A stretch of 64,000 nucleotides of DNA from Escherichia coli (GTDB taxonomy: Bacteria; Pseudomonadota; Gammaproteobacteria; Enterobacterales; Enterobacteriaceae), in NCBI RefSeq assembly GCF_013122565.1, contig NZ_CP053258.1; one strand, given 5' to 3'. The notes beneath the pieces were generated by a model. The model had not been told where the DNA came from. It did no database searches and worked only from the letters and a program-made list of their open reading frames with translations. Positions 51,545-52,077 of this stretch are shown here, in pieces. The first letter of the stretch is position 1, and each line of letters opens with the position of its first letter. The position numbers were made by a program, and so were the translations under genes.

Positions 51545-52077
51545 CTCAGGAAGGAAAAAGTGGCTTTCGCGCACCTTAGGTCAGACAAGGTGTCCGGGAA
51601 AGTCAATGGGAAGAGAAAAATTTGTTAAAAATAACTGTTCGGCGATTTCTTGAACGGCAGAATAGGTTGGATAAATTGATATAGATGGTTTATTAATCTT
51701 TTTGCTAATGATTGCAAAAATTGATCTAAGCACGAGTCATCACATAATCTGATGTATCAGTTGTGGTCAATATATAAGCGAATGTAAGCGATTGTTGATG
51801 TCGAAATGGTTGTTTTCTATTCGGTTGTTGTTAAATGCTAAGCCATTTTGTTAATTTACCTTATATTATAAGAAAATTATTGATTACTTTAATTCAGTTT
51901 AAATATAACTGATATCCCTAAAGGTTATTAACTTGAATTATGACGCATTGATATTATTCATCAAATAATAACAAAATAGCCATTGCACCGCGTTGAACAA
52001 TTTACAAAAGAAAGAAAAACCTTATTGCATAATACGTTTAAATACGCCGTCTTATATAAAATGATGGTCAGATTAAT

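Follow-up and report, generated by a model that had tools for sequence, protein, structure and literature searches.

The nrdA-yfaL intergenic region of Escherichia coli: ancestral nrdA control DNA next to an AT-rich segment associated with yfaL

Background

Between nrdA, which encodes a subunit of ribonucleotide reductase, and yfaL (ehaC), which encodes an autotransporter adhesin, the chromosome of Escherichia coli carries a long, AT-rich gap, and the question that it raises is whether this DNA governs yfaL, belongs to nrdA, encodes a product of its own or is simply a spacer. We analysed the gap within a stretch of 64 kb of E. coli DNA (the window, whose positions are counted from its first base), with the interval 51550-52077 as the part under study. 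A preliminary description had taken this interval for the AT-rich leader of a silenced adhesin gene or, alternatively, for the site of a small RNA or peptide. Its main idea is right in substance: the AT-rich gap is real, and it is also ordinary, having already been catalogued in E. coli K-12, while the label of a leader for the AT-rich segment is unproven. What we add here is a dividing line within the gap, with control DNA ancestral to nrdA on one side and DNA that came with yfaL on the other, the observation that base composition and length, and not sequence, are kept in the yfaL-associated part, and a set of reasons to doubt that the annotated ypaB is a gene.

Results

Geometry and composition of the gap

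The two genes diverge from a gap of 695 bp (51383-52077), precisely the length that had been estimated, and transcription of nrdA points away from it (Table 1). The identity of YfaL follows from the NCBIfam equivalog model NF007285, which is matched at 2777 bits with a cut-off of 1459, and Pfam recognises in the same ORF an autotransporter beta-domain as well as autochaperone and passenger-repeat domains. Of 5426 complete E. coli genomes, 5423 have the gap, so that the K-12 literature is applicable to it; between the window strain and K-12 the identity across the gap is 96.5%.

Base composition sets the interval apart from its surroundings. Its 528 bp have a GC content of 0.312, to be compared with a mean of 0.515 (sd 0.052) for the 528-bp windows of the 64 kb, of which only 0.14% are as low, and the lowest of them all (0.297) begins at 51599, inside the interval and overlapping it. 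The AT-richness that had been ascribed to the yfaL-proximal part is thereby borne out, with the qualification that it is unevenly spread: the first 100 bp (51550-51649) still have a GC content of 0.43, and the strongly AT-rich part extends from about 51600 to 52100 (GC 0.21-0.34). Other spacers nearby range from 0.45 to 0.58. The AT-richness expected of xenogeneic DNA is found in 51661-52077, whose GC content is 0.278, while the window as a whole stands at 0.515 and the coding sequence of yfaL at 0.512. Elsewhere in the window, the second lowest-GC stretch (about 0.32-0.36) coincides with elaD (10588-11763, minus strand), a 391-codon ORF with ElaD/SseL and Ulp1-protease domains, which is another gene of foreign composition.

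The interval contains no ORF of 60 codons or more, as had been stated; the longest in the gap have 47-50 codons, several others start from 14 codons upwards, and the RefSeq-annotated ypaB (47 codons) overlaps the first ~100 bp of the interval. The TTAA and TATA repeats mentioned in the preliminary description exist as frequent short words and do not form a tandem array, since Tandem Repeats Finder returned for the gap a single 10-bp unit present in 2.1 copies; there is in addition one 17-nt direct repeat pair. An Ag43-type Dam/OxyR phase switch, which we considered as a candidate, is unsupported, as the gap contains a single GATC (51723-51726) and no repeats of the kind that bound invertible elements.

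Published K-12 coordinates were transferred to the window by an offset calculation of our own, which is good to a few bp. The gap lies at 2344170-2344864 in the K-12-like record, which we take to agree with the U00096.3 numbering, and the gyrA-to-yfaL spacing, 4749 bp in the window, is presumably equal to that of K-12. Between U00096.2 and U00096.3 we assume an offset of about 1978-1980 bp, which would bring the start codon of yfaL to about 2342190 in U00096.2. The mapping is supported by the HusR peak, which falls 13 bp from boxes that were located independently.

Table 1. Positions of genes, sites and segments in and around the nrdA-yfaL gap (window coordinates)
Feature	Position	Strand	Basis and remarks
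nrdA, class Ia ribonucleotide reductase alpha subunit	49097..51382	-	761-aa ORF and RefSeq annotation of the matching K-12 locus
nrdA 5' UTR and core promoter (NrdR boxes, -35/-10 elements, DnaA boxes)	51383..51546	-	sequence
NrdR box ACACTATATATAGGGGG	51459-51475		sequence; within nrdA 5' UTR/core promoter
ypaB, annotated 47-codon ORF	51510..51653	+	RefSeq annotation; overlaps nrdA promoter DNA and DnaA boxes
DnaA box TTATGCACT	51524-51532	-	motif located in sequence
HusR peak	~51535		own mapping
DnaA box TTATCCACA	51536-51544	-	motif located in sequence
HusR (YnfL) box CAGGAAGGAAAAAGTG	51548-51563	.	PMC12844172 Table 1 sequence found in the window; the paper lists the reverse complement
HusR (YnfL) box CAGACAAGGTGTCCGG	51573-51588	.	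PMC12844172 Table 1 sequence found in the window
Promoter island 2342143_534	~51592-52125		own mapping
Distal part of the ancestral nrdA upstream region	51602..51689	.	12-genus alignment, motif scan, FNR ChIP peak
Conserved block GTCAAT (ATTGAC in reverse complement)	51602-51607		12-genus alignment, Enterobacterales
Conserved block GATTTCTTGAACG	51644-51656		12-genus alignment, Enterobacterales
yfaL-specific AT-rich segment, 417 bp, GC 0.278; core of the published promoter island	51661..52077	.	composition, comparison, catalogue; present only where yfaL is
H-NS motif match (9/10) TGGATAAATT	51668-51677		motif scan
Conserved block TTGAT	51676-51680		12-genus alignment, Enterobacterales
FNR-like site TTGATATAGATGGT	51676-51689		motif scan
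Predicted promoter-like site TTGATC-16-CATAAT, facing yfaL	51721..51748	+	consensus scan; one of 8 in the interval
Conserved block, core CGAATGTAA	51764..51794	.	only block in the AT-rich segment shared by diverged alleles
GadX ChIP-exo peaks, approximate, straddling the yfaL start codon	52061..52122	.	own mapping, good to a few bp
yfaL/ehaC, AIDA-I family autotransporter adhesin, 1250 aa, GC 0.512	52078..55830	+	ORF and family models

Two parts of different history

We fetched 80 Enterobacterales loci with the NrdA N-terminus as query. The arrangement in about 70 of the 80 is one in which ubiG directly precedes nrdA, with a spacer of 350-500 bp and without yfaL. A YfaL homologue stands between ubiG and nrdA in only five loci: L004, the E. 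coli-labelled genome SCPM-O-B-8794, and L005, E. albertii (each with a YfaL 78% identical to that of the window), L009, a Pseudocitrobacter MAG (68%), L025, Enterobacteriaceae bacterium RIT691 (54%), and L058, Rahnella bonaserana (52%). The presence of yfaL at this site in 5 of 80 loci is that of a horizontally acquired gene, the kind of gene with which promoter islands are associated.

By pairing related genomes with and without yfaL, we could set the bounds of the insert, which measures roughly 4.1-4.4 kb between ubiG and nrdA; it amounts to 4113 bp in Rahnella, including 296 bp upstream of yfaL, and to ~4.2 kb in RIT691, including 380 bp upstream of yfaL. The homology of the window to other genera ends at 51656-51725, and in an alignment of 12 genera the blocks upstream of nrdA are conserved only to ~51685. 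Because of these insert bounds, homology ends and conserved blocks, we divide the interval into a part that goes with nrdA (~51550-51685) and a part that belongs to the yfaL insert (~51661-52077), the boundary being approximate, as the two ranges overlap by ~25 bp.

Within the insert, length and composition are retained and sequence is not. The insert-specific segment of L004, L005 and L009 is 426-427 bp long with a GC content of 0.286-0.290 (417 bp and 0.278 in the window), and its identity to the window is only 40-47%. Such a pattern is expected of a platform that is read through its composition, for example an H-NS site, and conserved composition in the face of diverged sequence argues against the plain composition of a donor genome as the origin of the AT-richness. 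The equivalent segments of RIT691 and Rahnella have 43-44% GC, and extreme AT-richness is not universal for the insert.

The alleles found within E. coli follow the same division. When the window is compared with the SK1144-type allele, divergence climbs from ~51680 into yfaL, where the passenger domain is only 63-67% identical, and nrdA identity between E. coli alleles is 97-100%. This pattern agrees with the mosaic evolution that has been reported for yfaL.

Two further observations concern the distribution of the yfaL block. SCPM-O-B-8794 carries an E. albertii-like yfaL allele together with its upstream segment (L004 5300-5726; L005 5301-5726), the segment being 77% identical to that of E. 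albertii and 46% identical to the window, and this allele type is essentially missing from the 5,426 complete E. coli genomes, which suggests either that the yfaL block has passed from one species to another or that the genome is a cryptic lineage under a wrong label. In Rahnella (L058 1478-5590) and RIT691 (L025 1517-5718), yfaL occupies the ubiG/nrdA site, close relatives are without it, and the nrdA-side junction differs in each; this suggests a repeated gain, or loss, of yfaL at the same site, perhaps by recombination via the conserved flanking genes.

The nrdA side of the gap

Fis and ArgP sites are placed in the upstream regulatory region of nrdA, and the primary paper on H-NS and the nrd genes is reportedly that of Cendra et al. 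from 2013. The preliminary description had recognised NrdR-like palindromes and a DnaA box close to nrdA, and NrdR boxes and DnaA boxes are indeed located in the sequence there (Table 1); the layout of the NrdR boxes at the nrdAB promoter is described in PMC12176259. From a TTGCAA-17-TATCTT match we infer that nrdA transcription would start near 51490. Farther out lie two HusR (YnfL) boxes, which are assigned to the ypaB/nrdA spacer, HusR acting on nrdAB (PMC12844172), and beyond them an FNR ChIP peak at 2,342,585 that was given to the FNR-repressed nrdAB operon (Myers et al., PMC3688515) and that our coordinate mapping places at about 51684. H-NS, in turn, is given as a repressor of E. coli nrdAB in a review and in the NrdR paper (PMC12176259).

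On the upstream side of nrdA, the conservation that is shared by genera having yfaL and genera lacking it covers 51383 to ~51685 only. Because of the HusR boxes, the FNR peak assigned to nrdAB and the blocks that are conserved in genera without yfaL, we assign ~51550-51685 to nrdA: it is the outer part of the ancestral upstream regulatory region of this gene, and genera that lack yfaL have kept it too. Some 110-135 bp at the start of the interval are thus part of the known nrdAB regulatory region (DnaA, NrdR, Fis, ArgP/IciA, H-NS, FNR, HusR), which is conserved across Enterobacterales; the other ~400 bp differ from it in that they are missing from the genera without yfaL and are therefore not ancestral.

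One could go further and regard the whole AT-rich stretch as mainly an extension of the nrdA upstream region, a platform on which Fis, ArgP, FNR and H-NS tune the reductase operon, with yfaL as a bystander. The FNR peak near 51684, the repression of nrdAB ascribed to H-NS and the action of HusR on nrdAB from 51548-51588 are all consistent with this reading, and so are the perfect match to the Fis consensus at 51765-51779, inside the sole conserved block of the AT-rich segment, and the TTGAT motifs, which stand 44-45 bp apart in all Escherichia and Pseudocitrobacter versions. However, the genera without yfaL, with their spacer of ~350-500 bp, have nothing homologous past ~51685, and the divergence of the segment follows the yfaL alleles and not nrdA. 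The reading is true for 51550 to ~51685 and unlikely for the remaining ~400 bp, and as an account of the stretch as a whole we consider it improbable.

The AT-rich segment

Promoter-like sites are more crowded in the interval than anywhere else in the window. Of the 61 sigma-70-like sites that a simple consensus scan found in the 64 kb, 8 fall in the interval, which is the maximum of any 528-bp window (mean 0.51). Promoter islands are recognised by an exceptional density of predicted start points over at least 300 bp, and the density found here is of that kind, as judged by a simple sigma-70 scan in place of PlatProm. Dinucleotide shuffles of the scanned 901-bp region (51300-52200) led us to expect 3.8 ± 2.0 promoter-like sites, and composition explains about half of the number found. 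The site facing yfaL (Table 1) consists of the same TTGATC and CATAAT hexamers as the yfaL promoter predicted in the RpoD SELEX table (PMC3946193), and its -10 element is not conserved in other lineages.

The H-NS motif TCGATAAATT has one 9/10 match in the region (51668-51677) and, with up to two mismatches, three sites compared with 1.5 ± 1.2 expected; the motif scan of the region thus revealed no enrichment of the high-affinity motif beyond composition. Neither the helical phasing of A-tracts (AA/TT at 10-11 bp) nor the frequency of TpA gave a signal beyond composition. The main H-NS-relevant feature of the segment is its AT-richness itself.

A single block (51764-51794) is shared by the diverged alleles, and it lies ~300 bp upstream of the yfaL ATG in all versions; the match to the Fis consensus that it contains is perfect, the consensus being a degenerate one. 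A shuffle test gave 3/300 in the comparison with L004 and 41/300 in that with L009, which is weak support for the block. This weak support, together with an identity between lineages that is close to random (40-47%), would be in keeping with a functionless spacer, left behind by the insertion and AT-rich only by way of mutational drift. We regard such a spacer as very unlikely, as length (417-427 bp) and GC content (0.28-0.29) have stayed constant across versions that have diverged nearly to randomness, compared with 0.45-0.58 in nearby spacers, and as several proteins are reported to bind there.

ypaB and the possibility of a small RNA or small protein

The alternative raised in the preliminary description, a small RNA or small protein encoded in the region, for which ypaB and unannotated ORFs are the candidates on the protein side, has several points in its favour. 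About 4,500 E. coli genomes have the ypaB ORF annotated, its RNA rises in stationary phase in a HusR-dependent manner (PMC12844172) and 9.6-fold after AZT treatment, and the gap contains several ORFs of 14-50 codons. The ORF itself, however, lacks a Shine-Dalgarno sequence, begins with CTG instead of ATG in the SK1144-type (~89%-identity) allele, and in E. albertii is cut short by a stop at codon 18; most of its changes are non-synonymous, and it matched neither a Pfam nor an NCBIfam model. According to a CRISPRi paper, the nrdA promoter is contained in ypaB, and the conservation of ypaB is explained by the nrdA promoter DNA that it overlaps. Judging from these sequence features, ypaB is probably not a real protein-coding gene.

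Other small ORFs fare no better. Ribosome-binding-site scoring, which had been proposed as a check, and translation across alleles yielded no conserved small ORF in 51661-52077: none there has a Shine-Dalgarno sequence, none keeps its start and frame across alleles, and the small ORFs other than ypaB are broken in K-12 or SK1144. For RNA, a permissive Rfam scan of 51200-52300 returned only chance-level matches, the best of which scored 16-22 bits where 60-102 would have been required; 51300-52200 contained no terminator-like sites, and the AT-rich part showed no excess folding stability on either strand (z-scores of 0.39 and -0.05). We therefore reject both candidates, the small-RNA gene for want of an Rfam family, a terminator or a stable fold, and the small-protein gene for want of a ribosome-binding site and of ORFs that stay intact across alleles and species; that the region encodes either product now appears most improbable.

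Occupancy and expression reported for K-12

The locus has been met before in K-12. Panyukov and Ozoline (2013) described 78 promoter islands, stretches with extreme numbers of predicted start points, and their Table 1 contains the entry 2342143_534 yfaL(-)/ypaB(-), which is 534 bp long and carries marks for association with foreign genes (PMC3661553). The H-NS code of this entry is A, that is, bound according to each of the three sets of ChIP-chip studies that were compared (Grainger; Kahramanoglou; Oshima), so that the published H-NS data that had been named as a check do mark the region as bound (PMC3661553). As a class, according to the authors, promoter islands bind RNA polymerase, yield next to no full-length transcript and lie for the most part under H-NS. 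An RNA polymerase site in this very spacer comes from the RpoD SELEX study of Shimada et al. (PMC3946193), in which the yfaL/nrdA spacer is listed as a site of the RpoD holoenzyme and carries the mark HNS, which according to the legend means that the spacer includes H-NS binding sites. Seo et al. (PMC4918353) list two GadX ChIP-exo peaks for yfaL (2342146-2342173 and 2342169-2342207), with neither an expression change nor a known start site. Together with FNR (PMC3688515) and HusR (PMC12844172), the occupants published for the region are thus H-NS (PMC3661553), RNA polymerase (PMC3946193) and GadX (PMC4918353).

As to expression, one study saw a yfaL biofilm phenotype once a constitutive promoter had been inserted ahead of the gene, and another paper groups yfaL with the cryptic adhesins. 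The literature searched yielded neither a direct measurement of how far yfaL is derepressed in hns mutants nor a yfaL transcription start; the GadX table gives none, and the Cappable-seq supplements, searched by coordinate and gene name, contained nothing usable. The proposal of a control region for a silenced adhesin is thus supported by the H-NS-bound promoter island, the HNS mark in the RpoD SELEX data and the biofilm phenotype under an inserted promoter, and is to be corrected in that the interval is not one unit, as ~51550-51685 is nrdA upstream DNA.

Discussion

A probable composite control region

We consider it likely that the gap is a divergent control region of composite origin, whose two parts differ in history and whose AT-rich part is an H-NS platform that keeps yfaL silent. 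The ~420-bp segment of 28% GC would have come with yfaL when the gene was inserted between ubiG and nrdA, and would serve as a platform for H-NS binding. H-NS would coat the segment, and probably the start of yfaL as well, and would cover or trap RNA polymerase at the many overlapping promoter-like sites, whereby yfaL would be kept silent in laboratory conditions. GadX, which binds at the start of yfaL, and other site-specific regulators may then be candidates to lift the silencing in particular conditions, and the same H-NS filament, abutting the nrdA upstream region, is probably behind the reported repression of nrdAB. The composition, which is kept although the sequence has diverged, the density of promoter-like sites and the insertion history are shown here, and the occupancy has been published by others; that H-NS does silence yfaL, and where transcription of yfaL begins, we infer.

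If the composite region is read in this way, the insertion of yfaL may have placed an H-NS platform of ~420 bp within about 180 bp of the nrdA promoter, and the repression of nrdAB by H-NS may be a side effect of the gain of an adhesin. We put this forward tentatively, and as a doubtful possibility rather than a likely one. It predicts that repression of nrdAB by H-NS is absent in relatives such as Citrobacter or Enterobacter, in which ubiG directly precedes nrdA. As a still weaker addition to this possibility, the conserved block with the Fis-consensus match (51764-51794) might act as the switch that counteracts silencing. Should the platform indeed spill over onto nrdAB, the locus would offer a small and testable case in which the acquisition of a gene rewires the control of an essential neighbour. 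The locus is a textbook-style example of H-NS-associated AT-rich DNA ahead of a cryptic, horizontally acquired adhesin, and matters little beyond bookkeeping.

Likeness to known systems

The closest likeness is to the promoter island 2342143_534 yfaL/ypaB, which is the same locus: it shares the dense promoter-like sites, the AT-richness, the reported occupancy by H-NS and RNA polymerase and the horizontally acquired gene. In our mapping, its published bounds start ~40 bp later than the interval and run ~48 bp into yfaL; nothing essential differs, the window representing another E. coli strain. The H-NS-silenced promoters of cryptic adhesins (for example ycgV, the fim switch region and the cryptic chaperone-usher fimbriae) resemble the yfaL locus in having a long AT-rich region ahead of a surface adhesin gene that stays silent under laboratory conditions, and several cryptic adhesin loci appear with H-NS marks in the same promoter-island table (PMC3661553). 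The yfaL locus differs from them in that the literature searched held neither expression data from an hns mutant nor an anti-silencer for it. Phase variation of the Ag43 or fim type has left no sign at yfaL, which has its single GATC and no inverted-repeat switch.

Variation and copies of the nrdA upstream DNA

The DNA next to nrdA shows some variation of its own. Within the nrdA 5' UTR, 13 bp (window 51402-51414, GGAATTCTTTCCG) are missing in a diverged E. coli allele, for example that of SK1144; for the three listed members of the ~89%-identity allele class, the alignment begins only at query base 33, and the class comprises, by estimate, roughly 890 chromosomes. The nrdA promoter and DnaA-box region (window 51459-51569) is 70-76% identical to its counterpart in Serratia, Rahnella, Dickeya and Brenneria, where TTATCCACA is conserved, whereas Citrobacter, Enterobacter and Raoultella, though closer to E. 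coli, resemble this stretch less and have TTTAACGTCAA in place of TTATCCACA (L006-L013 and L031-L064 compared).

Copies of the nrdA promoter-upstream DNA also occur outside the chromosome. About 235 E. coli plasmid records contain a copy of ~115 bp (~78% identity) that corresponds to window 51506-51620 (L003 3001-3115), of which a 45-bp part that carries the -35 element and the DnaA boxes is nearly identical (GAAAATGGCCC..TTGCAAGTGCATAACTTTGTGGATAACTC). In the example L003, this copy immediately precedes a DNA polymerase III theta-like gene and is adjoined by a HumD-like gene and a type I restriction system, a context that looks like a phage-plasmid backbone.
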